Shown here: one piece after another, positions 1,421 through 42,595 of the stretch
Layout of the letters: the number at the start of each line of letters is the position of its first letter
How positions within the stretch are numbered: the first letter of the stretch is position 1
Source: a virus
DNA: 64,000 bases
Virus record (IMG/VR): IMGVR_UViG_3300029057_000206
Reading direction: 5' to 3' (one strand)
The notes under the pieces: generated by a model
Told to the model about the DNA's origin: nothing
Database searches by the model: none
What the model saw: only the letters and a program-made list of their open reading frames with translations
Made by a program: the position numbers and the translations under genes

Positions 1421-1441
1421 GCGGTTAGTGCGGAAATTTTG

Positions 1442-1497
1442 TTTCATATTGGTAGTGTAAACGAAACTATTTCAACAACGAAAGGAGAAAAAAGACT
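1442..1497 (+). promoter_or_regulatory. leader module L (TTTCATATT-N5-TGTAAAC-N~20-CGAAAGGAGAAA) in front of a 15-codon mini-ORF at 1498..1545
   Basis: gtttcatattggtagtgtaaacg...cgaaaggagaaaaaagactATG. This is one of 12 copies in the window. Confidence 0.5.
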
Positions 1498-1586
1498 ATG
1501 CGAAAAAAGAAAATAAAAATCATCGAAAAACCTCCTCGGTCTTGAAATTTTTGTATAAGTAAGAAAACAAGAGTTTCAATAGAAAA

Positions 1587-2235: not shown

Positions 2236-2270
2236 TAAAGGCACGGCTCCGGCTGTGTCTTTTTTTTGTA
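2236..2270 (+). terminator. rho-independent terminator
   Basis: A GC hairpin (cacggctccggctgtg) is followed by T8. Confidence 0.5.
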
Positions 2271-2322
2271 TTTCATATTAAAAATGTAGAGATTTTTTTT
2301 TGCGAAAGGAGAAAGAGAAAAT
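2261..2322 (+). promoter_or_regulatory. leader module L copy in front of cca
   Basis: tttcatattaaaaatgtagag...gcgaaaggagaaagagaaaatATG. Confidence 0.45.
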
Positions 2323-3705
2323 ATGAAAAAAGAAGAATTAATACCGGATGTCCGCTCACGGGAAGATATTAACCGGCTATATCAGGTGTTTACCGCATCA
2401 GGATATCAGCTGTATCCCGTTGGGGGCTGTGTGAGGGATGCTGTAGCCGGAACAGCGCCACACGACTACGATATGTGTACAAATGCTGTTCCGGCGCGGG
2501 TCATTCAGATTTTGCAGGACGGGCAGATTCCGTTCCATGCACCGGGGATCGACTTTGGTACGGTCATTGCAGATGTAAGAGGGAATTCCTACGAAATTAC
2601 GAGCTTCCGGTCAGAAAGAGAATATACCGATGGCCGGCATCCGGGTAAGATCGTATTTGAGAAGGAGATAAATAAGGATCTTTCCAGAAGAGACTTTACG
2701 ATCAATGCGATGGCTTACGATCTGCAGTCCGAAACGGTCATTGACCCATTCAACGGCATCAGCGACCTACAGAACGGCATCATTAAATGTGTTGGAGACC
2801 CTTTCGAGCGCTTTCAGGAGGACGGGCTTCGGATTGTCCGGGCACTTCGATTTGCAATCCGCTATGGGGCAGATTTTGATGGGAAAACGGCGGGAGCAAT
2901 CCATGAGAACCTTGGAATGCTGCAGAACGTTTCAAAAGAACGTATCCTTATGGAATTTAGGAAAATCCTGAGTATGGATAAACCGGTTTCCAGAGTTTTT
3001 GTGGAATATGCAGATGTAATTACCTGCCTTATTCCGGAATTAAAGTCGTGCGTACATTTCAATCAGAACAACAGATACCATAAGCATGATGTGTACGAGC
3101 ATCTGCTCGCTGTAACAGATTTGTGCCAGACCACAAAATTTGAGATTAAGATGGCAGCACTGCTTCACGATATTGGAAAGCCGGACAGCTACATGGAAGA
3201 TGAGAACGGACATGGTCATTTTTACGGGCATCCGGCAGTATCCGCGGAGATTGCAAAGGGAGTTCTGAAAACGGATTTTAAGGGGTTGAAGACGGAAGAA
3301 TATGACCGTATCGTTGCGCTTGTGAAAACGCACGACAAATCAATTTCGTCGTCAAGAAAATCCGTAAAAAGATTCATCGCTGCTCATGGAGCGGATTTCC
3401 TCGATGACTGGGCTGTTTTAAAGAAAGCAGATTTCGATGACCACATTTTCCCGTCAGAACCGCCAAAAAACTGGTTTACGGATATTCCAGATGTCCTGAA
3501 AATCCGTGATGAACTTGTGGCAGAGGAAGAGTGCTTTTCCCTGAAAGATCTGGCAGTTAATGGGAAAGATCTGATGAAAGAACTTGGCCTAAAACCGGGA
3601 AAGAAGATTGGTGCTATCCTGCAGCAGATGCTTGAAGCGGTCATTAACGAAACGGTAACAAACAATCGGGATGAACTTCTTTCCCTCGCACAGAAACTTA
3701 TTTAA
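2323..3705 (+). CDS. cca: CCA-adding tRNA nucleotidyltransferase (pol-beta NTase head + HD domain)
   Basis: Contains the GGCVRD...DYD nucleotidyltransferase motif and the HD motif LLHDIGK. 460 aa. Confidence 0.85.
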   Translation: MKKEELIPDVRSREDINRLYQVFTASGYQLYPVGGCVRDAVAGTAPHDYDMCTNAVPARVIQILQDGQIPFHAPGIDFGTVIADVRGNSYEITSFRSEREYTDGRHPGKIVFEKEINKDLSRRDFTINAMAYDLQSETVIDPFNGISDLQNGIIKCVGDPFERFQEDGLRIVRALRFAIRYGADFDGKTAGAIHENLGMLQNVSKERILMEFRKILSMDKPVSRVFVEYADVITCLIPELKSCVHFNQNNRYHKHDVYEHLLAVTDLCQTTKFEIKMAALLHDIGKPDSYMEDENGHGHFYGHPAVSAEIAKGVLKTDFKGLKTEEYDRIVALVKTHDKSISSSRKSVKRFIAAHGADFLDDWAVLKKADFDDHIFPSEPPKNWFTDIPDVLKIRDELVAEEECFSLKDLAVNGKDLMKELGLKPGKKIGAILQQMLEAVINETVTNNRDELLSLAQKLI

Positions 3706-3716: not shown

Positions 3717-5409
3717 AAAGCCTGTATCCCAGACTTTCTCAGACCGTAGACAAAGTGCTCCGAGAAACTTCCGTTTCTCGGAGCATTTTTCTTTGTGTTT
3801 ATGAAATTTATTCCGAAAACAGGAAATTTTCCCTTGGATTATGCCATCCGTAATCCCCATTCCTGCTTGCATTTTGCAAGCTTTTTTAAATTCATGCACG
3901 CAAACGTAAGCGCGACTTTCATTGTCATCCGCGCTTTGCCATACAACTGCGTATATCGAAATCCGTGGTTTTCCTTTGCCGTTCCAAAGATTCTTTCAAT
4001 CGTTTCTTTTCTGTGTGAGTATAGCTCCTTCATTCCTTCTGTATGCCGGATATCCTCACATGTTTCCATATAGTCTTCCCATACATGTCTCGTAACAACT
4101 TTTACATGGTTCTTGCTTTCTGTACACTGCGAAAGATACTCGCACTTTTCGCAAATCTGTCCACAGCTTTTATACTCGCGATATCCATCCCGATTTGTCG
4201 TGCTGTAATGCAGAAAGTGATTCCCTGGACAAATATAAGCATCATTATACTCATCATATACATACTCAGATTTCCTGAAAAAGCCATCCTTTGTCATGGG
4301 ACGCTTGTAAGGAAAGACCGGCTTTATTCCATCATCCAAAAGTAGCTTTGCTATTGCAGGAGTTTTATACCCGGCATCAACGATACAGTATTTCATGCCG
4401 ATATCTGCAAGCTTATCGTAAAGGCCTTTAAAAGTTCGACTGTCATGCTCATTACCAGGGTTTACTGTAAAATCAATAATCCATCCATTTTTATCGCATG
4501 CTGTTTCAATCCCATAAGCAAACACATGCTTGTGCTCACCTTTCCGAAACCAGCCGCTCTCAGGATCTGTAGTGCTACACTTAATTGTTTTTTCATCTGA
4601 CGGAACATCATCCGTATAATCTTCAAACTTGTCGTTGCCACCGGAACCAGGTTTGTTGTTATCGTCTTTATCTTTCAACGGTTTCTTTCCGTGCGCTTCT
4701 CTGTCTGCGTTAATGTCCTGACGCAGCATGTCAGCATAAAATAAAGCTTCCTGTTTTGCGATTCGTTTCTGCATCTTTCTGTTGTTCGCCCGCGCTTTCA
4801 CATGTGTTGCATCAACAAAAATCTCTGTTGAATCAACCAGTTTGAAACGGTAACACTCCTCAAGGATACGCTGGAAAATCTGCTCGAATAAGTCGGTATC
4901 TTTAAAACGACGGGTATAGTTTTTCCCGAAAGTAGAAAAATGAGGGACCGGATCATAAAGTTCAAGTCCAAGGAACCAACGGTAAGCCATGTTTACTTCA
5001 ATCTCTTTGATTGTCTGCCGCATGCTTTTGATTCCATACAGGTATTGAATAAGCGGTATCTTAATAAGCGTAACCGGATCAATACTTGGTCTACCCATTC
5101 CGTCGGAATAAGTATCACGGACGAGATCATAGATGAATGTCCAGTCAATAGCTTTGTCAATAAGTCGTAGAAGATGATTCCGCGGAACAAGATCATCAAT
5201 ACATACCATCTGCATTTGCTTTCTTACTTTTTCTGTTTCTTGTGTCATCATAGAACAATACCGCCTTTTTTGATACCTTTATTATACCAAAAAGAGACTG
5301 AAAAGTCTTGAAAATACTGACTTTTAGCCTCTTTAATACAGAAAAATCCCCGGCAAAAAGCCGAGGACTTTGTCTACAGTCTGAGAAAGCCTGTATCCCA
5401 GACTTTCTT
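3717..5409 (-). mobile_element. IS1182-family insertion sequence (~1.69 kb)
   Basis: Imperfect terminal inverted repeats ctttctcagac(c/t)gtagacaaagt(g/c)ctc lie at 3735-3761 and 5361-5387. They are flanked by a ~20-bp direct repeat aaagcctgtatcccagactttc (3718-3740 and 5387-5409). A single transposase ORF lies inside. Confidence 0.7.
3839..5251 (-). CDS. IS1182-family (IS5/IS4-superfamily DDE) transposase
   Basis: 470 aa. The N-terminus has the transposase-InsH-like LVPRNHLLRLID motif, followed by a DDE domain and a C-terminal Cys-rich region typical of IS1182. Confidence 0.85.
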   Translation of the reverse strand: MMTQETEKVRKQMQMVCIDDLVPRNHLLRLIDKAIDWTFIYDLVRDTYSDGMGRPSIDPVTLIKIPLIQYLYGIKSMRQTIKEIEVNMAYRWFLGLELYDPVPHFSTFGKNYTRRFKDTDLFEQIFQRILEECYRFKLVDSTEIFVDATHVKARANNRKMQKRIAKQEALFYADMLRQDINADREAHGKKPLKDKDDNNKPGSGGNDKFEDYTDDVPSDEKTIKCSTTDPESGWFRKGEHKHVFAYGIETACDKNGWIIDFTVNPGNEHDSRTFKGLYDKLADIGMKYCIVDAGYKTPAIAKLLLDDGIKPVFPYKRPMTKDGFFRKSEYVYDEYNDAYICPGNHFLHYSTTNRDGYREYKSCGQICEKCEYLSQCTESKNHVKVVTRHVWEDYMETCEDIRHTEGMKELYSHRKETIERIFGTAKENHGFRYTQLYGKARMTMKVALTFACMNLKKLAKCKQEWGLRMA

Positions 5410-5874: not shown

Positions 5875-6378
5875 CTACCCGTAGTATTCCTGTTTGAGAA
5901 AATCTGGTTCTCCTTCAATTCCAAGCGAGTCCATGCATTCTTTACAAATGGATTTAAGTTTTTCTTGCGTTAAACTTTTTTCCTCTTCGTTGTAGTTCCA
6001 TGGGTAATCTTCTTGGAAAATGACAGCTGGATAAGTGTCACAATCTGGATCAGCTCCGTAATAGGAAAAACGGATGCCTGTTACACGAGTCATTACATTG
6101 CTGATGACAGCGCCTGCGCCCTGTGATCCGGAAGTTTGGCAGCTGTAGGAATCGAAAGTTTTTTCAATGATGTCTTCTAGTTCAGATTCATCCATTTTTT
6201 TTGGTTTCCCATTTTCATCTTTTACATTGAGACGTTCTGAAAACAGGTTGAAAAGTTCAACCTCTTCATTACTCATGCAAAAATGAAAAAGGTTATTTTC
6301 GAGAAATTCTTTGAATTTTTTTGGCTTACAATCGCAGTTAAATCCAATGCCGCAGTAAATGATTGAGTTCATATTCAT
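5875..6378 (-). CDS. hypothetical protein
   Basis: 167-aa ORF. It is first in the operon and is preceded on the minus strand by leader module L. Confidence 0.5.
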   Translation of the reverse strand: MNMNSIIYCGIGFNCDCKPKKFKEFLENNLFHFCMSNEEVELFNLFSERLNVKDENGKPKKMDESELEDIIEKTFDSYSCQTSGSQGAGAVISNVMTRVTGIRFSYYGADPDCDTYPAVIFQEDYPWNYNEEEKSLTQEKLKSICKECMDSLGIEGEPDFLKQEYYG

Positions 6379-6434
6379 ATTTTGTATCTCCTTTCGATAG
6401 TAAAAAAATTGTTTTACAACTTTAATATGAAATA
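6379..6434 (-). promoter_or_regulatory. leader module L (minus strand), divergent from the next copy
   Basis: The reverse complement reads tttcatattaaagttgtaaaac...cgaaaggagatacaaaatATG. Confidence 0.5.
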
Positions 6435-6466
6435 AAAAAGTTTTCTTCTGTGGTTGGATTTTTTCA

Positions 6467-6516
6467 TTTCATATTGTTGGCGTAAACAAAAAACCTGTGC
6501 GAAAGGAGAAAATGAG
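6467..6516 (+). promoter_or_regulatory. leader module L
   Basis: tttcatattgttggcgtaaacaaaaaacctgtgcgaaaggagaaaatgagATG. Confidence 0.5.
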
Positions 6517-6825
6517 ATGGAAAAGAAAGAGATTGGAACGATGAGAGAGAAAGAATTCAAAGATGCCCTGCAGGAATCCAGAGAATATCTCTCAGACTAT
6601 ATTTGCGTTAGCAAAGATGTAATCAGGGCAATCCAGCGGCATGCAAAGCGCTATGGCATCATGCCTGGAATCTGTGCATGGTATCTCGACTGGGAAGATT
6701 TTTGTTCTGACTGGTGTGATCAGTGTGGATATACGCGAACGCAGGCAAGAAAACTGTTGCATGGAGGAATCGGGGAATTTCAGGTTTTGCCAAATGGAAA
6801 CGGAATCATCCGGTATACATTGTAA
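6517..6825 (+). CDS. hypothetical protein (start reassigned from the ORF-track 6454 to the ATG that follows the leader RBS)
   Basis: 102 aa. GAAAGGAG sits 8 nt upstream of ATG 6517. Confidence 0.5.
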   Translation: MEKKEIGTMREKEFKDALQESREYLSDYICVSKDVIRAIQRHAKRYGIMPGICAWYLDWEDFCSDWCDQCGYTRTQARKLLHGGIGEFQVLPNGNGIIRYTL

Positions 6826-7086: not shown

Positions 7087-7148
7087 CTTTTTTTTGTTTC
7101 ATATTACTGGTGTAAACTTTTTAAGACTATTCGAAAGGAGAAAATAAG
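7087..7148 (+). promoter_or_regulatory. leader module L
   Basis: tttcatattactggtgtaaac...ttcgaaaggagaaaataagATG. Confidence 0.5.
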
Positions 7149-7952
7149 ATGAAAGTAAAGAAATTAGCGGATGGAACAATACAGTTCCAAAAAGATGAGC
7201 GCGATTATGAGGACGTTGTTTACACCGTTTTCTTTGAAACAAATTTACTGCTTCTTGGTTTGAAGAAAGAAGATACTTCTGAAACTGTGCAATTCTTTTA
7301 CAGCATGGATACCGACAAGAAATACGGCACGGTTCATTTGCCAGAAGATCAGAAACGGTTTGATGCTGGCGAGGTATTAACTCTGTATCCGATGGATATG
7401 ACGATGGATGACTATGAAGTTCTTTGCAATGAAAAACTTATGTTTGAGATGTCTGGAGGACAGGTAATGGATGCGTTCTCGATTAATGAGAAATCTTTTG
7501 TTTTGTGCCCGTACGTCGTTGTTCCACATAAGGAGAAACCTTCCTTCAAATGCCTTGTATTCGACTATGAAATGAACCCAGTGGATGGATATGCGGATGT
7601 TTGTGGAGACAATCCTTTCACAGTTATGAAAAGGGTAATGGAAAAACTTGGGTTGGATGAGGAGAGTTCTGTATCGCGCATTGAAACAACGTCTGCTTTA
7701 ATGCGTGCTAGATATCGTAAATGGTTTTACACATACGGAAGCAGTAACCAGTTTCCTTTCCAGAGTGGCTGGACAGAGGTGCTTGCTACTGATGCAAAAC
7801 GAGCAAATCAAACTTTTCGTGGTGTTCACCCAGATGTAACTCCTGGTTATTTGAATTGTGCGTACATGTACAGTCAGGATGAGTTCCCAATGAGTATGGC
7901 TTCCGCAGGAAATTATGGAAGCTGGACGCAGGAAACCCTGATTGCCAGATAG
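7149..7952 (+). CDS. hypothetical protein
   Basis: 267-aa ORF that directly follows the leader. Confidence 0.55.
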   Translation: MKVKKLADGTIQFQKDERDYEDVVYTVFFETNLLLLGLKKEDTSETVQFFYSMDTDKKYGTVHLPEDQKRFDAGEVLTLYPMDMTMDDYEVLCNEKLMFEMSGGQVMDAFSINEKSFVLCPYVVVPHKEKPSFKCLVFDYEMNPVDGYADVCGDNPFTVMKRVMEKLGLDEESSVSRIETTSALMRARYRKWFYTYGSSNQFPFQSGWTEVLATDAKRANQTFRGVHPDVTPGYLNCAYMYSQDEFPMSMASAGNYGSWTQETLIAR

Positions 7953-8030
7953 TTGAAAAAGAAGAAAAAGCTGTGCATATTTGCATGGCTTTTTTTGTGT
8001 GTGGGTGTGAGAAATGGAGAAAAAGTTTCA

Positions 8031-8082
8031 TTTCATATTCCTTATGTGAACATTTTTACAAAGTTGAAAGGAGAAAGAATCT
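8031..8082 (+). promoter_or_regulatory. leader module L
   Basis: tttcatattccttatgtgaac...gttgaaaggagaaagaatctATG. Confidence 0.5.
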
Positions 8083-8943
8083 ATGAAAACAACAATTAAA
8101 CTGTGGTATGAGGAAAAATATCTGCCAAATAAAAGATGCCGTAAATTAAGAGAGCGTGCTGTCAGCAAAGATGTTGATATTGAGGCTTGCGAGGTTACCA
8201 AGGAAGAATTTCCGGTTGCGTTTGTCATACATGACTATGAGAGTGTGTATGAAGGTGCAAAGTCATATAGTGATTTTGAAGGAAACGGAGATTATAGGAT
8301 GTTTTCAGAAGAGATCAGGACATATAATGGGAAACTGTACAAGCCTCTCCGTGTTACGTACGGCACAGCAATCAGCACAAACTTTGAGTCATTGGATACT
8401 TTAAAATATAAGCTGCAGGAACAGGCTCCAGTCTGGAAAGGTGGAGAGGATTATTCAGAAGGATCCATTATTAAGGAAAGCAATTTTAATGAGAAAATGA
8501 ATTCCGCGAATAAAAGGGCCGAGGTTTATATTGTGTGTGACGGTGTCATCTGGGAAACTTGTGGAGAACCGATGTATGTCATAAATACTTTTGGCCTTGG
8601 ACACAACCATGGCGGAACTGGATTTTTTATTGAGTACTTTTATAATGATAACATTCCAGCTCAAAACTACTTCAACGCCTTGCAGCGTGAGGAAGCGATT
8701 ACCTATGGCAAAAAAGTAGCTCTTGGACGTGGGGATGACAAAAGCGTGGATGGCATGGGAGACCACGACATCATTGAGGTCAAGATGCCGGAAATGGTTA
8801 AGAGATGCCCACAGAAAGATCATGGGGATGGAGATCCATTTTTAAACGAGCTTGAAGGTATCATTTCCCATAGCGACAGCATTGGCGAAGCGGGGCTTCT
8901 CACAGTTCTTACGACAATGGCAGAGTGCAACGCAGAAAAATAA
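8083..8943 (+). CDS. hypothetical protein
   Basis: 286-aa ORF. Confidence 0.55.
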   Translation: MKTTIKLWYEEKYLPNKRCRKLRERAVSKDVDIEACEVTKEEFPVAFVIHDYESVYEGAKSYSDFEGNGDYRMFSEEIRTYNGKLYKPLRVTYGTAISTNFESLDTLKYKLQEQAPVWKGGEDYSEGSIIKESNFNEKMNSANKRAEVYIVCDGVIWETCGEPMYVINTFGLGHNHGGTGFFIEYFYNDNIPAQNYFNALQREEAITYGKKVALGRGDDKSVDGMGDHDIIEVKMPEMVKRCPQKDHGDGDPFLNELEGIISHSDSIGEAGLLTVLTTMAECNAEK

Positions 8944-8949: not shown

Positions 8950-8981
8950 AAGGGTTCGTCTGATGGCGGACTCTTTTTTTT
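8950..8981 (+). terminator. terminator; its 35-nt sequence aaagggttcgtctgatggcggactcttttttttat is identical to the copy at 11477-11511
   Basis: A G-U-containing hairpin (gggttcg / cggactc) is followed by T9. Confidence 0.5.
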
Positions 8982-8982
8982 A

Positions 8983-9010
8983 TTCCATATTAAAAGTGTA
9001 AACCGATTTT
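8983..9010 (+). promoter_or_regulatory. leader module L, truncated (its downstream part is displaced by the IS605 insertion)
   Basis: ttccatattaaaagtgtaaacc, then the IS left-end hairpin. Confidence 0.4.
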
Positions 9011-9073
9011 TTAATGAAATATCTAAGCAGAAGTCCCCTGACAGCGTCAGGGGATGAATGCGCCATTCGTACT

Positions 9074-9499
9074 CTATTTTGTATACTGATTCTGTATATA
9101 CTGGCGCACAGTTTCTTTGCTCATGTTCCCAACGGTACCCATGTAATAGCTGTGTGACCACAGGTGCCCTCCCCACATCTTTGCTTCTTTGATCTCCGGG
9201 TGGTTTATGAAAAAGATCTTTGCACTATGGCCCTTGAGATTTTTTACTACATCTGTTGCAGAATACTTTGGCTTAAAACTTAGCATCATATGGACATGAT
9301 CTTCCATAACTTCGATCTCTTCGATGCTGATGTCACTTTTCCCGGCGATATCCAGAAGGATGGATTTCATTTCTTCCACAAGCTGTGGAGTCATAAAAAT
9401 CTTATTCCTGTACTTCGTGACCCACACCAGACGATAGTGGAAGTTGTAAACATAATTCCGTTCATAAACGGCACCTTCAATGCGTGGTTTTCTTTTCAT
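9074..9499 (-). CDS. tnpA: IS200/IS605 TnpA (Y1 HUH transposase)
   Basis: Contains the HUH motif HVHMML and conserved residues YxxK..WGGHLWS..Y. It was trimmed to the ATG that has an RBS (the track ORF starts at 9634). Confidence 0.85.
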   Translation of the reverse strand: MKRKPRIEGAVYERNYVYNFHYRLVWVTKYRNKIFMTPQLVEEMKSILLDIAGKSDISIEEIEVMEDHVHMMLSFKPKYSATDVVKNLKGHSAKIFFINHPEIKEAKMWGGHLWSHSYYMGTVGNMSKETVRQYIQNQYTK

Positions 9500-9609
9500 A
9501 TGCATCACTCCTTTTATTTTAAAATAGCATATGTGTCTGTTGAATTCAATGTTCATATGTGCTATAATTAACCCAAACATAAGTTTGCTTTTGAAGGAGG
9601 TGAAAATCC

Positions 9610-17525: not shown

Positions 17526-19442
17526 ATGGAAGGACAGATGAGTTTATTCAATACACCGGAGGTATCCGGAACATCGGCACTTAAGGTTTCCAGAGATTTT
17601 GGAGAACATATCGGAGGCGCGAGAAAGGAACTCTGGTCAGCTGGAGGCATCAATCTTGAGGATCTTTTGGATATGAATGATGCTGAGAAAGCAAAATTCG
17701 TAAAGAAAGACAATATCTGGAAGAAACCGGATTATGAGCAGATGGTCGAAGCTGGCGTTCCGAAGGTAGTCGCTTACGCGATCAAAGAGGTGCGCAATGC
17801 AATTCCAGCAAAGCCATATGTTTCGTATTTCGAGCAGGACGATCCAGAGAAGGTGAAATACCGGATGGAGTGTTACGTCAAATTCGTGACCATGATCAGG
17901 GATACCATGTCGGGTGTTTCTTCTGAAGAAGAGTTTATGGAGAAACAGCAGGTTGTTTACAATCAGATTGTTGATCCGGAGCGCAGTACGCGTTACAGTA
18001 TCTCTTCCAAACCGGAGTATACCGGATTGTTCCAGACGAAGCTTTTGCGTGCGATCCGCTGTGGTCATCAGACTTTCTCTGGCTACGCATACTGTGCAGA
18101 AGAAGAACAGTTTGCTGTGAAGAAAGAAGATAAGATACCTGCCGGATGGAAGATTGAAAAATATTCCCCGGATGGTTTTTACAGCCGTAGCCGTGTCGGA
18201 TGCATCAGGGATACTTACATTGTTTCCAAAGGGTATTCTGTCATTGAGAAGAATATCCCAACGTACGAGGAAGCACTTTGTAAGTGCCAGGAATACGCAA
18301 AGCAGCTGAGAGCCAAGAAGCCACGCAAGGCTTCCGCTACTCCAAAGCAGCTGAAACGGGTTGAGCGTACCGGCCTTCCTGATGTCCGGAATGGACGGGA
18401 TATCGTAGGAGAAGATTTCCTTAAAGATTTCAATATCCGTGGCGGAGAGTTCGGAAACTGGATGACGGAAAATGATGCTCAGTCAAGCCTGAACATGGCA
18501 TATGAAGCATTCTGTGACTTTGCAGATATTCTTGGCATTCCGTTATCTTCTGTGTCTTTTGGAGGCCGTCTTGCGATCGCTTTCGGTGCAAGAGGACAGG
18601 GTTCCGCAGTTGCACATTACGAGCCGCTTCGTGAGGTAATTAATATTACGAAGATGAAAGGGGCCGGGTCACTCGGTCATGAAATGTTTCATGCGCTTGA
18701 TGACATTGTAGCGAAAAAACTGGGATTAACTAAGATGATGACAGAATCATTTGAGAAAGATAAAATTCCAGAGAGTGTACTGAATGTGATTAGTGCAATG
18801 AAGTACCGCAAAGCTACAAAAGAGGAGATTGAATCAGAAAGAACGAAGAGGGTCAAGGGTACAGAAAACCGTCTTCGGAGATATATTGATTCTGTTTTCC
18901 CAGCAAATGATCTTTCTGAGGAACAGATAGAAAAGAGAGCAGAACTGGTAAGAGATATTTTCGAAGACAGATCGGAAACTCTCATTTCTATTGATGGAAC
19001 AGCGACAGCTGCAATCGAAGCACTTTCTTCATACAAAAAAAAGGTTACCGGACGTGTGATCAATAAAGAATCCAGAAAGAATGTGTTCTGGTCCTGGTAT
19101 GCATACAAAGAAGCGGTTACTGCTTCCTATGGAAATATGCAGATGACATCGGAATATTACAAGGAGTCAAAAAAGATGGATGATTGCACTTCCAAAGATA
19201 AGTTTGGATACTGGTCGTCCACCGTTGAGATGTTTGCCCGTGCCGGTGCATGCTACCTTACCGATATGCTGAGAGCCAGGGGAGCCAAGAGTGATTACTT
19301 ATCTGGACACTCAGAAAGCTGTGTAGGCATGGATAAAAACCTTAATCCTGTTTATGCGATGCCGCGTGGAGAAGAGCGCAAAGCGATCAATGCAGCAATC
19401 CATGACATGATCGAAGATCTCAAGGCAAAAGAACTTATTTAA
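17526..19442 (+). CDS. large hypothetical protein with an HExxH zinc-metallopeptidase motif (GHEMFHALDD); possibly ArdC-like or polyvalent-protein-like (low confidence)
   Basis: 638 aa. The HEMFH motif is in the middle. The N-terminal region has FGEHIGGARKELW. Confidence 0.55.
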   Translation: MEGQMSLFNTPEVSGTSALKVSRDFGEHIGGARKELWSAGGINLEDLLDMNDAEKAKFVKKDNIWKKPDYEQMVEAGVPKVVAYAIKEVRNAIPAKPYVSYFEQDDPEKVKYRMECYVKFVTMIRDTMSGVSSEEEFMEKQQVVYNQIVDPERSTRYSISSKPEYTGLFQTKLLRAIRCGHQTFSGYAYCAEEEQFAVKKEDKIPAGWKIEKYSPDGFYSRSRVGCIRDTYIVSKGYSVIEKNIPTYEEALCKCQEYAKQLRAKKPRKASATPKQLKRVERTGLPDVRNGRDIVGEDFLKDFNIRGGEFGNWMTENDAQSSLNMAYEAFCDFADILGIPLSSVSFGGRLAIAFGARGQGSAVAHYEPLREVINITKMKGAGSLGHEMFHALDDIVAKKLGLTKMMTESFEKDKIPESVLNVISAMKYRKATKEEIESERTKRVKGTENRLRRYIDSVFPANDLSEEQIEKRAELVRDIFEDRSETLISIDGTATAAIEALSSYKKKVTGRVINKESRKNVFWSWYAYKEAVTASYGNMQMTSEYYKESKKMDDCTSKDKFGYWSSTVEMFARAGACYLTDMLRARGAKSDYLSGHSESCVGMDKNLNPVYAMPRGEERKAINAAIHDMIEDLKAKELI

Positions 19443-19484
19443 CAACAACGAAGAAGGGCTTGCAGCGATGCATGCCTTTTTTTG

Positions 19485-19536
19485 TTTCATATTAAAGAAT
19501 GTAAACAATTTGATCATCGAAAGGAGAAAAAATACT
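19485..19536 (+). promoter_or_regulatory. leader module L
   Basis: tttcatattaaagaatgtaaac...atcgaaaggagaaaaaatactATG. Confidence 0.5.
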
Positions 19537-20421
19537 ATGAAAAAATCAAACGAAGAAAAAACTTATGCAACTCTTAAACTTGGTAAGACTTATAAGTTTG
19601 CCGGATACAATTGGATGGCCTGTGAAGTGGATAATGACCGTCATGTTGTTGTAATCCAGTCGCATGGGGTAACCCATGGTGCATGGCCGGGATATACAAT
19701 GCCACAGTTTGGAAACGGCAATTATTATTCCAATTCCATTGATGGAAAGGACATCAGCGACTACGATGACAAGATGCGGGCACTTTACGATGACATCAAA
19801 GATGCAGAGGATAAAGCTGCTCCTTATGGGGAAGGACTGTATTTGATATCAGTGGAAAAAGCCGAGTTTAAGGAATGGGATAACACAGGTTCCGGAAATT
19901 ACTGGCAGGCATTGAAGGCAACGGCAGAAAACGCCCATTCGTTCCGGGATGCCAATTACTTTGCGTGGCTCGGTGCTGACAATGGCAGCAAAGGCGCGTG
20001 GTGTGTTGACTCGGATGGCTGCTTCTACAACTACTTCAATAAACGCAACGACTTTGTTATTGCCCCATGCTTCAACTTAGATTTATCGAAGGTTAAAGTT
20101 GTAGATAACGAAATCGTCATTATAGACAATAAATTTGGTATATCCTTAATTGAGAAACCAGATGTTTATGGCCTGGTAAAATCAGAAATCATTAAAATGT
20201 ATGACATGCTGGACACGGATGAAGTATACCCGTTAGAAATCAGCGGTTCCCAGAGTTCTGCAATGGGCTTTATTACCCAAAAGGCAGCGGAAGTCATTGA
20301 TTATGACTACGAGAATTCGGGGCTGAATGAATTTATATCATCTATTCTGGATGATATGGATAAGGAATCAGAAGACAGTATCTATGATTTCCATGGTGTT
20401 AAAATTCATCTTGAACGTTGA
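19537..20421 (+). CDS. hypothetical protein, paralog family Y (GKTYKFAGYxW..C..VIQSHGVTHGAWPG..MPQFGNGN.Y..GSGNYWQALK..APAFNLDLSK) with an extra ~100-aa C-terminal extension
   Basis: Four related copies are in the window (19537, 61320-61760 fragments, 62548, 63159). Confidence 0.6.
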   Translation: MKKSNEEKTYATLKLGKTYKFAGYNWMACEVDNDRHVVVIQSHGVTHGAWPGYTMPQFGNGNYYSNSIDGKDISDYDDKMRALYDDIKDAEDKAAPYGEGLYLISVEKAEFKEWDNTGSGNYWQALKATAENAHSFRDANYFAWLGADNGSKGAWCVDSDGCFYNYFNKRNDFVIAPCFNLDLSKVKVVDNEIVIIDNKFGISLIEKPDVYGLVKSEIIKMYDMLDTDEVYPLEISGSQSSAMGFITQKAAEVIDYDYENSGLNEFISSILDDMDKESEDSIYDFHGVKIHLER

Positions 20422-21682: not shown

Positions 21683-21730
21683 CATTTACAGATGGAATTA
21701 AGAAGAGTCTTCTGGCTCTTCTTTTTTTTA

Positions 21731-21780
21731 TTGCATATTAAGGGTGTAAACAAAACATATTTGAAAGGAGAATTGAAACT
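21731..21780 (+). promoter_or_regulatory. leader module L
   Basis: ttgcatattaagggtgtaaac...tttgaaaggagaattgaaactATG. Confidence 0.5.
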
Positions 21781-22275
21781 ATGAAAGAGTACAAAGAATT
21801 TAAAGATCAGGATGAAATGTATAAAGTAATTACTTTCTGGAGTAATTGCTGCGGTGACCTGCATCACAACGGGGAATACGATGTCAGCGAGGAACAGCTT
21901 CCGGAAGAATTGCAAAGGGCATACCGCGAACTGTGGGAAGAAGGCAACGGATGCCTGGAATATCTTCTTGAGTATGGCGGCAGATATTACGTTGCGTTGT
22001 CTGCGGAATTTGATGGCGATTACGCAGATATGCTTGGTCTTTCCATGGACGAACTGTATGCGGTTGGTAAATGCAATGCACTTAAACTGTATTGCACGGA
22101 TCTGTTTAAGGATACACTGCTTCTTATGGCAAAAAAGCCGCTAGATGGAGATTGCCACGAATTCATATTCCTGGTTCCGGCAATGGAGTCGAAGGAAGTT
22201 TACGATGAAATCGAGAAGGAAATCAGCGAAAAAATCTGGGATGTCCCGAAGGAAGTTGTGGATAAGAGAAGATAG
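21781..22275 (+). CDS. hypothetical acidic protein
   Basis: 164-aa ORF. Confidence 0.5.
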   Translation: MKEYKEFKDQDEMYKVITFWSNCCGDLHHNGEYDVSEEQLPEELQRAYRELWEEGNGCLEYLLEYGGRYYVALSAEFDGDYADMLGLSMDELYAVGKCNALKLYCTDLFKDTLLLMAKKPLDGDCHEFIFLVPAMESKEVYDEIEKEISEKIWDVPKEVVDKRR

Positions 22276-31168: not shown

Positions 31169-31191
31169 CAGAAAAATTTTCAAGAAATTTC

Positions 31192-31238
31192 TGATTTACT
31201 TTGACGATTTTTCAAAAGGCGCAATATGTGTAATGAAG
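31192..31238 (+). promoter_or_regulatory. promoter element P copy 5
   Basis: tttactttgacgatttttcaaaaggcgcaatatgtgtaatg. Confidence 0.5.
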
Positions 31239-35335: not shown

Positions 35336-35387
35336 GAAAGAAGCCGGGGAATCCCGACTTTTCTGCTGCATTGTGTGTATATTTTAA

Positions 35388-35461
35388 CGCCGCCTGCGGG
35401 ATTCGAACCCGCGGATAAAGAGTTCAAAGCTCCCTGCGTTAACCTTTTCGCCAAGGCGGAG
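35388..35461 (-). tRNA. tRNA-Gln(TTG)-like, degenerate (acceptor mismatch, G-U pairs in the anticodon stem)
   Basis: T-arm gcgggTTCGAATcccgc. Anticodon loop CTTTGAA. Confidence 0.35.
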
Positions 35462-35532
35462 CACACCCGGAAGGACTCGAACCCTCGTTACCGGTTTTGG
35501 AGACCAGTTTCTGTCCATCAGACAGGTGCATA
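35462..35532 (-). tRNA. tRNA-Trp(CCA)-like with a reduced D-arm (possible pseudo-tRNA)
   Basis: Anticodon arm ctggtCTCCAAAaccgg. T-arm gagggTTCGAGTccttc. The acceptor needs two G-U pairs. Confidence 0.35.
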
Positions 35533-35533
35533 A

Positions 35534-35604
35534 CAGGCGATAATGGAATCGAACCATTGTTTTCTGAGTCAGAATCAGATGTCTTACCATTGAACGAATC
35601 GCCC
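35534..35604 (-). tRNA. tRNA-Gln(CTG)
   Basis: Anticodon arm tctgaTTCTGACtcaga. T-arm aatggTTCGATTccatt. Position 1:72 is a G-U wobble. Confidence 0.5.
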
Positions 35605-35606
35605 AG

Positions 35607-35680
35607 TATCCCCAAAGGGACTCGAACCCTTAACCGACAGATTAGAAATCTGTTGCTCTTTCCAATTGAGCTATGGGGAT
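35607..35680 (-). tRNA. tRNA-Arg(TCT)
   Basis: Full cloverleaf: acceptor ATCCCCA/TGGGGAT, D-arm GCTCaattggaaaGAGC, anticodon arm acagaTTTCTAAtctgt, T-arm aagggTTCGAGTccctt. Confidence 0.75.
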
Positions 35681-35686
35681 ATATAG

Positions 35687-35776
35687 CGCAGACACCGGGG
35701 ATCGAACCCGGACAGCGGGTGTGCCGCATGCCACATTAGCAGTGTGGAGGGGTACCATTTACCTTTATATGTCTGC
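35687..35776 (-). tRNA. tRNA-Ser(GCT), class II
   Basis: Acceptor GCAGACA/TGTCTGC. Anticodon arm ccacaCTGCTAAtgtgg. Long variable arm. T-arm ccgggTTCGATCcccgg. Confidence 0.6.
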
Positions 35777-35781
35777 ATAAG

Positions 35782-35853
35782 AGGCATCGGAGGGGATCGA
35801 ACCCTCGCCTTCCGGGTTGCAGCCGGACGCCTTCGCCGTTTGGCTACGATGCC
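35782..35853 (-). tRNA. tRNA-Cys(GCA)
   Basis: Acceptor GGCATCG/CGATGCC. Anticodon arm tccggCTGCAACccgga. T-arm gagggTTCGATCccctc. Confidence 0.75.
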
Positions 35854-35883
35854 ATATAATTCTTCCCGATAAGAGAAGATGAG

Positions 35884-35967
35884 CGCTGGGGCAGGGAGTC
35901 GAACCCTGATATCCTTTCGGAATGACGGTTTTCAGGACCGTTGCTTTACCAGTTGAGCCACCACAGC
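35884..35967 (-). tRNA. tRNA-Ser(TGA), class II, with an unusual C33
   Basis: Anticodon arm acggtCCTGAAAaccgt. Variable-arm hairpin tccGAAAgga. T-arm cagggTTCGACTccctg. Confidence 0.55.
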
Positions 35968-36005
35968 AAAAATAAAAGCATACACCTCTCAATCGAAAGA
36001 TGTAT
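35960..36005 (-). terminator. terminator inside the tRNA array (minus strand) that splits it into two transcription units
   Basis: The reverse complement reads aagcataca...tgtatgctt followed by ttatttttg. Confidence 0.45.
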
Positions 36006-36212
36006 GCTTTGCAATTCCAGGTATTTCCAATATTCTCCCGGAAATTTCCCTACAATGACCACATTTCTTTCAATTTGAGACAATATTTATTTGCACGACA
36101 ACTACGCCAGATACATGACTGCGACTGACTCATACTTGCCTGTGAATATTGTCTCATTACTGCTGTAATCATTGATTTTCCCTTCCTTTCCTTGGTTTTC
36201 TTGAATATTTAG

Positions 36213-36286
36213 TGTGTCTGGTGGGACTTGAACCCGACGACCCCACGATTAAAAGTCGCGTGCTCTGCCAACTGAGCTACAGACAC
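36213..36286 (-). tRNA. tRNA-Lys(TTT)
   Basis: Acceptor GTGTCTG/CAGACAC. D-arm GCTCagttggcaGAGC. Anticodon arm cgcgaCTTTTAAtcgtg. The T-stem is imperfect. Confidence 0.6.
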
Positions 36287-36291
36287 ATAAG

Positions 36292-36363
36292 CGGATCAGG
36301 AGGGGATCGAACCCTCATCTTCCGGTAGACAGCCGGATGTACTAGCCGCTATACTACAGATCC
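36292..36363 (-). tRNA. tRNA-Asp(GTC)
   Basis: Anticodon arm tccggCTGTCTAccgga. T-arm gagggTTCGATCccctc. Confidence 0.65.
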
Positions 36364-36367
36364 ATAA

Positions 36368-36440
36368 AGCTCCCGTCCGGCTTCGAACCGGAAACCTTCT
36401 GATTACAAGTCAGATGCACTACCAGTTGTGCTACAGGAGC
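36368..36440 (-). tRNA. tRNA-Thr(TGT)
   Basis: D-arm GCACaactggtaGTGC. Anticodon arm tctgaCTTGTAAtcaga. T-arm tccggTTCGAAGccgga. Confidence 0.7.
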
Positions 36441-36446
36441 AGGAAC

Positions 36447-36519
36447 ACTTCCGACGGGTGCTGCCCCGCTATCTCCGCCGTGACAGGGCGGTGACTCTGT
36501 TGTTTGTCCTCGGAAGTAA
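36447..36519 (-). pseudogene. tRNA-like pseudogene (7-bp acceptor cttccga/tcggaag and a GTC-anticodon-like hairpin, but no TTCGA T-loop)
   Basis: The reverse complement reads CTTCCGAgg...ccgccCTGTCACggcgg...TCGGAAG. Confidence 0.3.
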
Positions 36520-36524
36520 ATAAG

Positions 36525-36606
36525 TGCGCCGGGGAGGACTCGAACCTCCGGTGTTTCTTTGTGGCTGATTTACAGTCAGCTGCTGTCGCCTCTGAGCCAC
36601 CGACGC
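36525..36606 (-). tRNA. tRNA-Tyr(GTA), class II length, with an unstructured variable region
   Basis: Acceptor GCGTCGG/CCGGCGC. Anticodon arm gctgaCTGTAAAtcagc. T-arm ggaggTTCGAGTcctcc. Confidence 0.55.
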
Positions 36607-36611
36607 ATAAG

Positions 36612-36683
36612 CTGGTCCGGAGGGTCTCGAACCCTCAACGCCCCGGTTAACAGCCGGGTGCTCTACCATTGAGCTACGGATCA
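36612..36683 (-). tRNA. tRNA-Asn(GTT)
   Basis: Starts with U1-A72. D-arm GCTCaatggtaGAGC. Anticodon arm cccggCTGTTAAccggg. T-arm gagggTTCGAGAccctc. Confidence 0.7.
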
Positions 36684-36684
36684 G

Positions 36685-36756
36685 AGCATGTGACGGGTCT
36701 CGAACCCGCCCGTCCTGCTTGGAAGGCAGGTGTGCCGCCAACAACACTTCACATGC
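36685..36756 (-). tRNA. tRNA-Gly(TCC)
   Basis: Acceptor GCATGTG/CACATGC. Anticodon arm cctgcCTTCCAAgcagg. T-arm gcgggTTCGAGAcccgt. Confidence 0.7.
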
Positions 36757-37261
36757 ATGCGGATAAAAGAAGTGCCTGTTTTCTCTTATCCATTCAGTTT
36801 TTTTACCGCATCGCTGCGGAGTGGACAGGAGTGGTAACGATCCACCCTGTAAGGATTTTCAGTCCTTCGCTAATCCATCTCAGCTACCTGTCCATGGCTT
36901 TTTCTGCAATAAAAAAGCCGCATCAAGAAATTTCCTCTTCTCTCTGCGGTCATCTGCGTTTTGCAATATTTCGGTTTTAAGTGCCTGGTTTAAAATCGAA
37001 ATCGACCGCGGGAAGGTGTATCATAATAGTTCTGTCCCCATGTTTTCCCGGATTTTGAGCATGAGAAACTAAACATATTGCTGAAATCGCCGTATGTTCT
37101 ACAATCATTATTAAAATTTTTACTACTCATCATCTTTAACATGGTTTTCTTTTCCTTTCATTTTAATTAATGCTGGATAAACAAAAAGCCCGTCACTTAA
37201 CTCAAAGCTACACATCCAAATAGCTCTGAGTTAAAAGACAGGCACTTCTTTTATCTCATGC
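36755..37261. repeat. ~500-bp segment bounded by ~24-bp inverted repeats (gcatgcggataaaagaagtgcctgt / acaggcacttcttttatctcatgc) that abuts the 5' end of tRNA-Gly
   Basis: The IRs can be read directly, with one indel. The interior has no convincing ORF. Confidence 0.45.
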
Positions 37262-37302
37262 ACCTATCATATCATACTGATCGTGAAGTGTCAACAGGAA
37301 AT

Positions 37303-37380
37303 TTAAAAAAGGTTATTTTTGGTTATTTTGGTTATTTTTCAAAATAAAACAAAATAAAACAAAATAAAACAAATAAAAAT
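37303..37380. repeat. AT-rich tandem repeats (ggttatttt x3, caaaataaaa x3-4)
   Basis: Directly visible. Confidence 0.7.
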
Positions 37381-37409: not shown

Positions 37410-38030
37410 TTAACAGGTTAATTCGTAGTCGTACAGATCGAGCGGCGTTTTGTTTCCGCTGGACCACTCAAACTCTTCGTTGTCCCAAATGCTGCGGGCG
37501 TTGTTCAGATTGATCTCATCCGTCAATACCTTTTCTTCGATATTAATGAACCGTTCCAAAGATTCTTTGAAGCGGTTGATGACTTCCTCGGGATTCTTTG
37601 AATGCCAGCTGTATTCGTCGAAAAACCTTCCACTGGCGGTAATTGTTAATTTCTCGCCGTTATCCGACAATCCAGATAGTTCAAGTGTAACCATTCCCTC
37701 GGAAATATCGCTATAATATTCGCCTGGTTTGTTGGTATCGTTGATTTTGTTCCCTAGTTCTTCCGCTTTTTCCATCATGCCCCAAATTTCCCCTGGAAGC
37801 GTAAGGTAGTCTTCTGGATAGTATTCCACGGTTGGGTTGATTTCCTCTTGCAGGAGATCTTCAACAAAATTGTCTCCTTTAAAAATAGCAAAAGAGTCGA
37901 CACCTCTTGCGGAAACCTCAACTTTCCCGCATTTGCATGGGAATATTTTAAAAAGTCTTCTATCTCGAGTGTCATAAGCTACTGAAAAAATGCCGCATTC
38001 TTTGCATTTAAAATTTCTTTGTGTTTTCAT
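37410..38030 (-). CDS. hypothetical protein with an N-terminal zinc-ribbon (CKECG...CKCG)
   Basis: The start was set at the ATG preceded by leader module L. The track ORF extends further, to 38195. Confidence 0.55.
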   Translation of the reverse strand: MKTQRNFKCKECGIFSVAYDTRDRRLFKIFPCKCGKVEVSARGVDSFAIFKGDNFVEDLLQEEINPTVEYYPEDYLTLPGEIWGMMEKAEELGNKINDTNKPGEYYSDISEGMVTLELSGLSDNGEKLTITASGRFFDEYSWHSKNPEEVINRFKESLERFINIEEKVLTDEINLNNARSIWDNEEFEWSSGNKTPLDLYDYELTC

Positions 38031-38088
38031 GATTTTTCTCCCTTCATCAATGGTTTTATTTACACTTTTAATATGAAATATTAAAAAT
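38031..38088 (-). promoter_or_regulatory. leader module L (minus strand)
   Basis: The reverse complement reads tttcatattaaaagtgtaaataaaaccattgatgaagggagaaaaatcATG. Confidence 0.5.
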
Positions 38089-38105
38089 ATTTCAAAAAAT
38101 TTCCC

Positions 38106-38152
38106 GGAAATTTTTGACGAAATTTCAAAAGGCGCAATATATGTAATGAAAG
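38106..38152 (+). promoter_or_regulatory. promoter element P copy 7 (divergent from the leader L just upstream)
   Basis: aaatttttgacgaaatttcaaaaggcgcaatatatgtaatg. Confidence 0.5.
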
Positions 38153-38168
38153 GAGGAGGAAATACAAA

Positions 38169-38660: not shown

Positions 38661-38936
38661 TTACAGATCACTTTCGATGAAAATTTGCTTTGCGATTTTT
38701 CCGATCACCCAATTTGGAATGTCGCTGCGGCATCCAGAATGGATTTCTCCGTTTTCAACAAAAAAGAATGCGGATTCTTCCGTTTTCATGCGGTCTAAAG
38801 CTTGCGCAGAAAAATATAAGGAATGGTGGAAGTCGCATCTTTGTGCCTCCTCATATGTATGGACTTCCTCTATTTTCCCATCGATCAGGCTGACACAGCC
38901 GGACCAGAACTCTTTTCCTTCGAATATTGCTGCCAT
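38661..38936 (-). CDS. hypothetical protein
   Basis: 91 aa, preceded by leader L on the minus strand. Confidence 0.5.
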   Translation of the reverse strand: MAAIFEGKEFWSGCVSLIDGKIEEVHTYEEAQRCDFHHSLYFSAQALDRMKTEESAFFFVENGEIHSGCRSDIPNWVIGKIAKQIFIESDL

Positions 38937-38990
38937 GTTTTGCTCCTTTCAAAATACTTTCGTTTACACTTTCAATATGAAATGAAAATA
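38937..38990 (-). promoter_or_regulatory. leader module L (minus strand)
   Basis: The reverse complement reads tttcatattgaaagtgtaaacgaaagtattttgaaaggagcaaaacATG. Confidence 0.5.
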
Positions 38991-39005
38991 TTTCAAAACA
39001 TTTCC

Positions 39006-39052
39006 AAAAACTTTTGACGATTTTTTAAATGGCGCAATATGTATCATGTAAA
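39006..39052 (+). promoter_or_regulatory. promoter element P copy 8
   Basis: aaacttttgacgattttttaaatggcgcaatatgtatcatg. It contains a 14/15 match to spacer S1 of array 4. Confidence 0.5.
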
Positions 39053-42578: not shown

Positions 42579-42595
42579 GGTAATAAGAGAAAGGA

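Follow-up and report, generated by a model that had tools for sequence, protein, structure and literature searches.

What is the function of a short sequence that stands repeatedly in front of otherwise unrelated genes, and what reads it? The question is raised by a 64,000-nucleotide (nt) stretch of DNA from the IMG/VR virus record IMGVR_UViG_3300029057_000206 (hereafter the window, meaning this whole stretch), in which a leader sequence, here called module L, recurs; one copy occupies positions 19485–19536. The initial annotation of the window read L either as a promoter of alternative-sigma or phage type or as a shared regulatory cassette that includes a ribosome-binding site (RBS). L is indeed set directly 5' of genes in the manner of a shared regulatory-plus-RBS cassette. 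We consider it probable that the module is a composite of terminator, promoter, short unstructured leader, and strong RBS, and that it serves as a portable expression cassette of an extrachromosomal element of ~265 kb. An alternative-sigma or element-specific promoter is our leading idea for the central part of L, whereas the extracytoplasmic function (ECF) and sporulation-sigma consensus sequences, with which a comparison had been proposed, do not fit.

Anatomy and Copy Number of Module L

The module consists, in order, of a T-tract, the block T(T/C)TCATATT (the TTTCATATT block, below called the 9-mer), five nucleotides (N5), TGTAAAC, a variable A-rich stretch of 10–16 nt, the extended Shine-Dalgarno (SD) sequence GAAAGGAG, which can base-pair with the 3' end of Firmicute 16S rRNA, six to eight further nucleotides, and ATG. 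The copy at 19485–19536 reads TTTCATATT-AAAGAA-TGTAAAC-AATTTGATCAT-CGAAAGGAGAAA-AAATACT-ATG, in which CGAAAGGAGAAA is an extended SD sequence, and a GC-rich hairpin with a T-run lies directly 5' of it.

All twelve copies counted in the initial annotation are present, and the window holds one degenerate thirteenth (Table 1). The 16-base core TTTCATATT-N5-TGTAAAC has 12 matches with at most three mismatches, compared with 1.97 ± 1.31 in shuffles that preserve dinucleotides. True copies account for eleven of the 12 matches; the twelfth true copy, at 19485, has N6 in place of N5. Ten copies are within one mismatch of the core. A weight matrix built solely from L copies on other contigs scored the eleven N5 copies at 27–45 bits, against a maximum of 12 in shuffled windows, and the same scan brought up the degenerate copy, which lies 5' of a gene for a BspA-type leucine-rich repeat (LRR) protein. 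Three of the plus-strand starts first given need a small correction (2271 rather than 2261, 7097 rather than 7087, and 17473 rather than 17468), and the coordinates given for minus-strand copies marked the start-codon end, the 9-mers themselves lying as listed in Table 1. Three back-to-back divergent arrangements occur: 6432(-)/6467(+) and 38078(-) with a module of a second type, P (described below), both recognized from the outset, and 17445(-)/17473(+), which we add. The copy first placed at 8983 is interrupted by an IS200/IS605 insertion, in agreement with its earlier description as truncated by an insertion sequence (IS).

A constant 5 nt, once 6, separates the 9-mer from TGTAAAC, the only fixed gap in the module. 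From the end of TGTAAAC to the start codon the distance is 22–37 nt (mode 29–31), in line with the ~30 nt originally reported, and from TGTAAAC to the SD sequence it is 9–21 nt (mode 14). Over related DNA the consensus is T6-(T/C)(A/G)-T(T/C)T-CATATT-nnWGR-TGTAAAC-AAAA. To counter selection bias, we anchored on one block and read the other: with only TGTAAAC and the SD sequence as anchors, 94 of the 104 unique copies have T[TC][TGC]CATATT at the N5 offset, CATATT being near-invariant and its C never T in the copies that bear the block. The T-tract and the pyrimidine-purine (Y-R) step, which lay outside the search pattern, are still conserved at 0.9–1.7 bits per position. No conservation was found at the -35 position of L or between TGTAAAC and the SD sequence.

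Distribution of L and the Genes Behind It

A strict composite (9-mer, N4-6, TGTAAAC, N9-18, GAAAGGAG) gave zero matches in IMG/VR and occurred at only 4 loci among 185,579 species (one genome each), three of the four lying in a single Lachnospiraceae assembly; in human-gut metagenomes it was found at 112 loci or more. Because the strict motif is so restricted in species genomes and absent from IMG/VR, L is element-specific and is not spread through AT-rich intergenic DNA at large, the possibility that a motif scan had been suggested to address. A full-text literature search for both sequence blocks of L returned irrelevant matches only.

Among the matches listed, ~0.9 Mb of related human-gut contigs carry 367 copies of L, 89% of which have an SD sequence and a start codon 22–37 nt past TGTAAAC, and 62 unrelated protein clusters lie behind them, most without a Pfam or NCBIfam match. 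The products include a DnaE-type DNA polymerase III alpha subunit, NrdD, LigA, RecJ, a UvrD-like helicase, a PARP-like protein, a guanylate-kinase-like protein, an LPD1 protein, and the CCA-adding enzyme encoded by cca. Within a locus, 89% of copies are on the same strand. The 10 kb to the left of the window contain six further copies, among them copies 5' of PARG and ligA, and none was found right of 39 kb in the window or in the 10 kb past its end; with copies confined to the left part, L marks one large domain of the element.

The largest L-driven family, with 48 members and many paralogues, has the domain signature LGKTYxFxGYxWxACE...IQSHGVTxGxWPG; it occurs at two sites in the window (Table 1) and at loci L066, L073, and L067, and had no match in Pfam, NCBIfam, or the Protein Data Bank (PDB). 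A further protein of these loci is a giant of 3,745 amino acids (aa) with ALK/LTK-type glycine-rich domains (L089:2969–14206, minus strand); it is present in 8 L-bearing loci and may be a surface protein.

A Probable Composite of Terminator, Promoter, Leader, and RBS

A stable hairpin lies directly 5' of L in 55–65% of 207 unique copies, as opposed to 6–21% of shuffles. As these upstream terminator hairpins should stop transcription, it must restart within L, and in the three divergent pairs there is no upstream transcript at L. The sole promoter-like block of the module is CATATT, which has the A of a -10 hexamer at position 2 and its T at position 6. Placing CATATT at -12 to -7 brings the G of TGTAAAC (19501 in the copy at 19485) to +1, preceded by T, the usual pyrimidine-purine start. 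The putative leader that follows folds with a median energy of -2 kcal/mol (z of about +0.2 relative to shuffles) and is 50% A, and an Rfam search returned tRNAs only; it is therefore not a structured RNA, which argues for an open, efficiently translated leader.

We propose that L joins four parts. The intrinsic terminator of the upstream gene would come first, its T-tail doubling as the conserved T-tract in 55–65% of copies. There would follow a -35-less promoter with the core T-Y-T-CATATT, its CATATT spanning -12 to -7 with A at -11 and T at -7, the start at or beside the G of TGTAAAC, and the T-tract at about -23 to -18; then a short, unstructured, A-rich leader of ~28–43 nt; and finally an extended SD sequence of 8–9 nt (GAAAGGAG) 6–8 nt 5' of the start codon. 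Each gene behind L would in this way form its own insulated transcription unit, and the module would tie a large number of genes, most of them co-oriented, into one regulon that includes orphan genes and genes for DNA metabolism, tRNA repair, and DNA modification.

The departures of L from the extended -10 of sigma-A promoters (Y at -14, C at -12, T at -8) are invariant in ~100 unique copies, in which the spacers vary freely. Since a canonical promoter, TTGACA-17-TATGAT, exists on the same element, L appears to be a distinct promoter class; and because C -12, T -8, and TGTAAAC are invariant though non-consensus while a textbook sigma-A promoter stands elsewhere, a dedicated reader or regulator is indicated. 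The reading of L may involve an alternative or element-encoded sigma factor, an activator or appropriator, or a repressor acting on TGTAAAC at +1.

Cassette Boundaries at L

Clusters that were seen behind a module at least twice have more than one kind of upstream neighbor, that is, a synteny breakpoint, in 23 of 56 cases. Control positions shifted by 0.7–2 kb gave breakpoints in 3–8 of 36–44, an enrichment at modules of about 3-fold that is inflated by the location of most controls inside genes. In alignments, homology stops at the junction between terminator and L. One such cassette, 8981–11467, holds an L copy and a terminator together with a C5 methylase gene disrupted by an IS; a 33–42-nt terminator repeat forms its borders, and the relatives L119 and L120 lack it. 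Similar breakpoint behavior has been described for the PeSL (promoter-early stem-loop) cassettes of T4-type phages (PMC2839356, PMC4122927). Repeated copies of L could also act as homology patches for the swapping of gene cassettes. Not all rearrangements are cassette-mediated, as the junction of an 11.2-kb deletion in scaffold L118 lies within open reading frames (ORFs).

Comparison with Known Promoter Classes and RNA Elements

The promoter part of L matches no standard bacterial promoter type. As the initial annotation had concluded, the two blocks are not a -35/-10 pair of sigma-70 type: only 5 bp separate TTTCATATT from TGTAAAC, a -35 is absent, and information content is at most 0.19 bits at all positions from -30 to -9 relative to the 9-mer. 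A scan with the sigma-70 consensus reported no L copy. CATATT agrees with TATAAT at four of six positions, including A at 2 and T at 6, and the extended -10 TG at -15/-14 is not found in L, which has T and T/C at these positions and no G. Nor can TTTCAT be a -35 with a -10 hidden in the variable stretch, from TGTAAAC to the SD sequence, where nothing is conserved.

ECF promoters combine an AAC-containing -35 with a CGT-type -10 at a fixed spacing of 16–17 bp. With TGTAAAC as the -35 and the CGA of CGAAAGG as the -10, the variable spacing in L (9–21 nt) makes this geometry impossible; more generally, TGTAAAC is not any -35, since it lies 22–37 nt from the start codon at a variable distance from CGAAAGG, and transcription would begin in or after the SD sequence. 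The two-block geometry is similar to that of sigma-54 promoters (-24/-12, TGGCAC-N5-TTGCW, with GG and GC 10 bp apart), but GG and GC are absent from the consensus. Sporulation sigma factors use a -10 of CATACAnT, CATAnnnTA, or CATnnTA with a -35 of ATA, AC, or GnATR at 14–18 bp; for sigma-E, -K, -G, and -F alike, only the CATA at the start of the -10 fits, the rest being unconserved or different. A TcdR-type promoter on the opposite strand, with GTTTACA as its -35, finds no -10 at 17 bp.

Several other kinds of element were likewise rejected. A hairpin of UUUCAUAUU with AAUAUGAAA that would sequester the start codon is fully complementary in 2 of 12 copies, shows no compensating changes, and is a side effect of ATG-AAA starts. 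A structured RNA leader or known RNA family is at odds with the unstructured leader and the outcome of the Rfam search. A single-stranded-DNA promoter of Frpo type, in which a long imperfect hairpin re-creates -35 and -10 boxes in the transferred strand, does not agree with the presence upstream of short terminator hairpins only, the unstructured leader, and copies on both strands; integron attC sites would have a long hairpin and RYYYAAC/GTTRRRY cores, which L lacks, and again the copies lie on both strands.

What Reads L?

That the housekeeping sigma-A holoenzyme of the host reads L alone, through a -35-independent, extended -10 geometry and with no dedicated factor, is in our judgment unlikely. 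The T-tract would then be a spacer or UP-like element, and the conserved +1 region would merely tune initiation or mRNA stability. CATATT does retain A -11 and T -7, the most critical bases for -10 recognition in the sigma-70 family; the Y-R-T step resembles the TRT of the Gram-positive TRTGn '-16 region'; housekeeping-type element genes (DnaE, NrdD, LigA) are among those driven by L; and no gene for a dedicated sigma factor was found in the window and the related loci searched. Yet T-Y replaces the TG of the extended -10, C and T are invariant at -12 and -8 in place of T and A, and ~100 unique copies show no drift toward the consensus, whereas a perfect TTGACA-17-TATGAT is used elsewhere on the element; conservation through +1 to +10 is, moreover, unusual in sigma-A promoters. 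We think it rather doubtful that L is instead an operator, at which an element-encoded repressor or activator binds TTTCATATT and TGTAAAC, one helical turn apart on the same face, so that the regulon is switched on transiently upon entry into a new host and kept low later, as by Reg at the EGeRS2 promoters of p576. Two dissimilar blocks with a fixed 5-bp gap and centers ~13 bp apart would suit such a protein, as would the strong co-orientation of the genes and their establishment- or counter-defence-like character (DNA methylases, LPD1, PARP, PARG, cca with the tRNA array, LigA, RecJ), and repeated regulatory sequences 5' of variable establishment operons provide a precedent (PMC8708921). However, the blocks are neither palindromes nor direct repeats, lone half-sites outside L occur at background level only, and no candidate regulator was found in the window and related loci searched. 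An operator also needs a promoter, and the module has no other promoter-like conservation; for this reason the operator complements the composite cassette more than it replaces it. Very unlikely, finally, is a role at the RNA level, in which L would serve the processing, stability, or enhanced translation of polycistronic transcripts that read through from upstream, with the hairpins shielding 3' ends and not ending transcription. The proximity of L to the start codon (22–37 nt), the A-rich leader, and the extended SD complementarity accord with it, but secondary structure is neither conserved nor above chance, Rfam gave no match for L, a hairpin with a T-run is the classic form of an intrinsic terminator, the divergent pairs have no upstream transcript to process, and the T-tract and 9-mer show conservation of DNA blocks for which there is no partner to pair with.

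Several considerations weigh against our preferred reading of L as a composite expression cassette with a dedicated factor, along with the inflated breakpoint contrast given above. The sequences establish the anatomy of L, its copy number, its restriction to this element family, its placement relative to genes and terminators, its lack of RNA structure, and the excess of synteny breakpoints, whereas we infer promoter activity, the start site, and the dedicated factor. No sigma factor, RNA polymerase, or regulator that might read L was found in the window (64 kb), the DNA flanking it, or ~1.1 Mb of related loci; this search combined Pfam with nearly all window ORFs of 60 aa or more, the DFDGD motif, a PDB search with three large unknown proteins, phmmer with RpoE, SigW, and SigF against six-frame ORFs of the ~1.1 Mb, and reading of scaffolds to ~10 kb beyond each end of the window. 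A second register may apply, with TGTAAAC as a -10-like or -12-like block and the start ~9 nt downstream, and copy-and-paste spread or gene conversion could keep some of the identity without selection on each base. A bolder version of the composite reading, which we put forward only tentatively and regard as improbable, makes L the promoter of a dedicated, element-encoded specificity system, such as a divergent sigma-like factor, an appropriator, or a non-canonical RNA polymerase. If it were true, that system would read the two-block, -35-less TYTCATATT-N5-TGTAAAC, its blocks one helical turn apart, and would give a very prevalent ~265-kb gut element a private regulon for its establishment, counter-defence, and replication genes.

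The Carrier Element

The window is part of an extrachromosomal element of ~265 kb, a megaplasmid or huge phage of human-gut Lachnospiraceae, and not a chromosome plus island. The sequence of its LPD1 protein is identical in 538 blocks of the assembly collection, and its genes, LPD1 included, lie on contigs of up to 264,631 bp (ERZ28574372 scaffold_41) and 265,247 bp (ERZ28619933 scaffold_11). The isolate behind assembly MGYG-HGUT-00136 is one cultured carrier. Scaffold L118 (265 kb) lacks the 11.2-kb segment 1623–12871, which includes cca, its junction lying inside ORFs and not at a module. The view of cca as a core gene has therefore to be given up: in an element of this kind, and in a segment that one variant has lost, it is cargo.

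The window has a GC content of 40.4% and codes for an LPD1-domain protein, a PcfJ-like protein, N6/N4 and C5 DNA methylases, and a SNF2-type helicase; it also holds the 3' end of ligA, an array of 13 tRNA genes, a separate tRNA-Met gene, the L-driven cca, two insertion sequences, and the cas genes described below, the remainder being orphan genes. In relatives, PARG, SpoVG, and a complete NAD-dependent ligase lie just to the left of the window, which, with the tRNA genes and cca, suggests a tRNA- and NAD-centered counter-defence set. Related loci encode a DnaE-type polymerase, NrdD, RecJ, UvrD and RecD2 helicases, NadE, a Mob_Pre relaxase, an actin-like ALP_N partition protein, and a tyrosine recombinase. 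The window and the readable related loci showed no gene for a capsid protein, a terminase, a sigma factor, or an RNA polymerase, and annotated phage and plasmid collections contained no close relative of the element. Both insertion sequences are polymorphic among near-identical contigs. The element with a DDE transposase, absent in L119, L120, and L124, is 99.9% identical to the 'Bacteriophage sp.' record MT836577.1 from human faeces; the IS200/IS605 element (Y1 TnpA and TnpB) destroyed an L-driven C5 methylase gene, of which only a 3' fragment is left.

Type I-C cas5, cas8c, and cas7 are present, adjoined by neither cas3 nor adaptation genes and followed by ~8 repeats with ~67-bp spacing and 60–86% mutual identity. 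The Hodor megaplasmids are alike in size, habitat, and a type I-C system with a degraded array, but they carry Rep_3, ParA/ParB/ParM, type IV secretion system, and sortase modules and have a GC content of 44.6–47.1% (PMC12934698), compared with 40.4% here; Rep_3, type IV secretion, and sortases were not seen in the readable parts of the element. We treat kinship with Hodor as a lead only.

Two other regulatory sequences were observed. Module P, a repeat of ~55 nt (...ATATTTCAAAAnATTTCC..GAAAnTTTTGACGAttTTtcAAAAGGCGCAATATGTgT) containing the -35-like hexamer TTGACG, stands 5' of cas5 and of a number of small ORFs, and two L copies have it as their back-to-back neighbor; it probably represents another promoter class of this element. 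The textbook sigma-A promoter (TTGACA-17-TATGAT with an upstream TG) lies 5' of a small ORF and the tRNA array and is preceded by short tandem repeats, four copies of TTTTATTTTG and three of AAAATAACC. Beside one copy of L, at 1442, a further detail was noted: it opens a lysine-rich mini-ORF of 15 codons (MRKKKIKIIEKPPRS), which may be a leader peptide or gene remnant, and a 105-aa ORF with its own SD sequence begins ~55 nt past it.

Table 1. Positions of L copies, P modules, and other features in the window
Feature	Position	Strand	Components	Gene or context
L	1434–1500	+	9-mer 1442–1450; TGTAAAC 1456–1462; SD 1479–1490; ATG 1498	Mini-ORF 1498–1545
L	2261–2325	+	9-mer 2271–2279; variant TGTAGAG 2285–2291; SD 2303–2314	cca, 2323–3705; conserved terminator GGCACGGCTCCGGCTGTGTC-T8 upstream
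DDE transposase element	3740–5383			
L	6376–6442	-	9-mer 6432–6424; TGTAAAA 6418–6412; SD 6396–6385; ATG 6378	167-aa ORFan; divergent to 6467(+)
L	6459–6519	+	9-mer 6467–6475; CGTAAAC 6481–6487; SD 6500–6511; ATG 6517	102-aa ORFan
L	7089–7151	+	9-mer 7097–7105; TGTAAAC 7111–7117; SD 7132–7143; ATG 7149	267-aa ORFan; upstream terminator
L	8023–8085	+	9-mer 8031–8039; TGTGAAC 8045–8051; SD 8065–8076; ATG 8083	286-aa DUF8359 protein
L without SD or start codon	8975–9027	+		Interrupted by IS200/IS605 element
IS200/IS605 element	~9028–11060			
C5 DNA methylase, 3' fragment	11063–11464			Behind L at 8975
P	~11560–11640	+		
Candidate degenerate L	17403–17453	-	TTGCATATT 17445–17437; N5; TATACAG; GTG 17405	BspA-type LRR protein; 16.9 bits (shuffle maximum 12)
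L	17465–17528	+	TCTCATATT 17473–17481; TGTAAAC 17487–17493; SD 17507–17518; ATG 17526	638-aa LPD1-domain protein, HExxH motif
L	19477–19539	+	T-tract 19477–19483; TTTCATATT 19485–19493; N6; TGTAAAC 19500–19506; SD CGAAAGGAGAAA 19518–19529; ATG 19537	294-aa ORFan 19537–20421, largest L-driven family; adjoining upstream terminator hairpin, -15.4 kcal/mol
LGKTYxFxGYxWxACE domain	19537–20421			
L	21723–21783	+	TTGCATATT 21731–21739; TGTAAAC 21745–21751; SD 21762–21773; ATG 21781	164-aa ORFan; upstream terminator
P	~31170–31230	+		
13-tRNA array	35387–36893	-		
Sigma-A promoter	37265–37375	-	TTGACA-17-TATGAT	Small ORF and tRNA array
L	38028–38088	-	9-mer 38078–38070; TGTAAAT 38064–38058; SD 38046–38035; ATG 38030	206-aa ORFan; divergent to P
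P	~38100–38160	+		
L	38934–38990	-	9-mer 38982–38974; TGTAAAC 38968–38962; SD 38951–38940; ATG 38936	91-aa ORFan; divergent to P
P	~38990–39045	+		
P	~42540–42590	+		
cas5, cas8c, cas7	42596–45919			Type I-C
Repeats after cas genes	46189–46684			
tRNA-Met	53586–53660	+		
LGKTYxFxGYxWxACE domain	61343–61759			

Relation to Known Systems and Significance

Promoters that lack a -35 and depend on a single element are found in phages, namely the late promoters of T4 (TATAAATA, read by gp55) and those of phiEco32 (TAATGTATA, read by gp36). As in L, one extended -10-like block of 8–9 bp is the main determinant, and a mobile element uses these promoters for a temporal class of its genes; the sequence of L differs, and it adds a T-tract and a +1 block. 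The extended -10 sigma-A promoters of Firmicutes, with the '-16 region' TRTGnTATAAT, share with L the geometry from -17 to -7 and the bases A -11 and T -7, but in L the bases Y, C, and T invariantly replace G -14, T -12, and A -8.

In its mode of working L is closest to two described systems. The PeSLs of T4-type phages are, like L, small repeated composites of terminator and promoter that stand preferentially before orphan genes in plastic regions; PeSLs serve as recombination points at which cassettes are inserted, deleted, or swapped (PMC2839356, PMC4122927), a role that L may share. PeSL promoters match the sigma-70 consensus, with a -35, a -10, and an AT-rich upstream region, whereas L has no -35, a T-Y-T-CATATT core, the +1 block TGTAAAC, and a fixed strong SD sequence, and it belongs to a Gram-positive gut anaerobe and a more plasmid-like carrier of ~265 kb. 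EGeRS1 and EGeRS2 of the pLS20-family conjugative plasmids are repeats immediately 5' of the RBS of several operons, which hold variable establishment and anti-restriction genes of a Gram-positive plasmid, and they define a regulon, as L would (PMC8708921). EGeRS2, however, has a strong canonical promoter flanked by dual-heptamer operators (TTATCCCnnTTATCCC) for a ribbon-helix-helix repressor, the repressor gene reg of p576 bearing the same sequence, and EGeRS1 is 420–750 bp long, GC-rich, and highly structured (PMC8708921), unlike the ~33-bp, unstructured L; dual heptamers are not present in the L consensus, and a repressor gene was not found in the readable parts. L works like PeSL and EGeRS but belongs to neither. 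Putative mobile promoters also place near-identical upstream sequence before non-homologous genes (PMC3488235), but L is a short, defined motif with variable spacers in one element family and not a long identical segment.

The carrier of L is extremely common in human-gut metagenomes, and most of its genes are without known function. The module provides a sequence handle for one large co-regulated gene set of the element, which includes tRNA-repair, NAD/ADP-ribose, DNA-methylation, and replication genes and for which counter-defence and establishment functions are plausible. If a dedicated factor reads L, it would represent a new promoter specificity in Clostridia and an experimental switch for the regulon. 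The design of L would be a ready-made, insulated expression part for the Lachnospiraceae, which are genetically hard to manipulate, and the module would carry the PeSL idea, that regulatory cassettes are the joints at which orphan genes recombine, beyond the T4-type phages and into a Gram-positive megaplasmid or huge phage.

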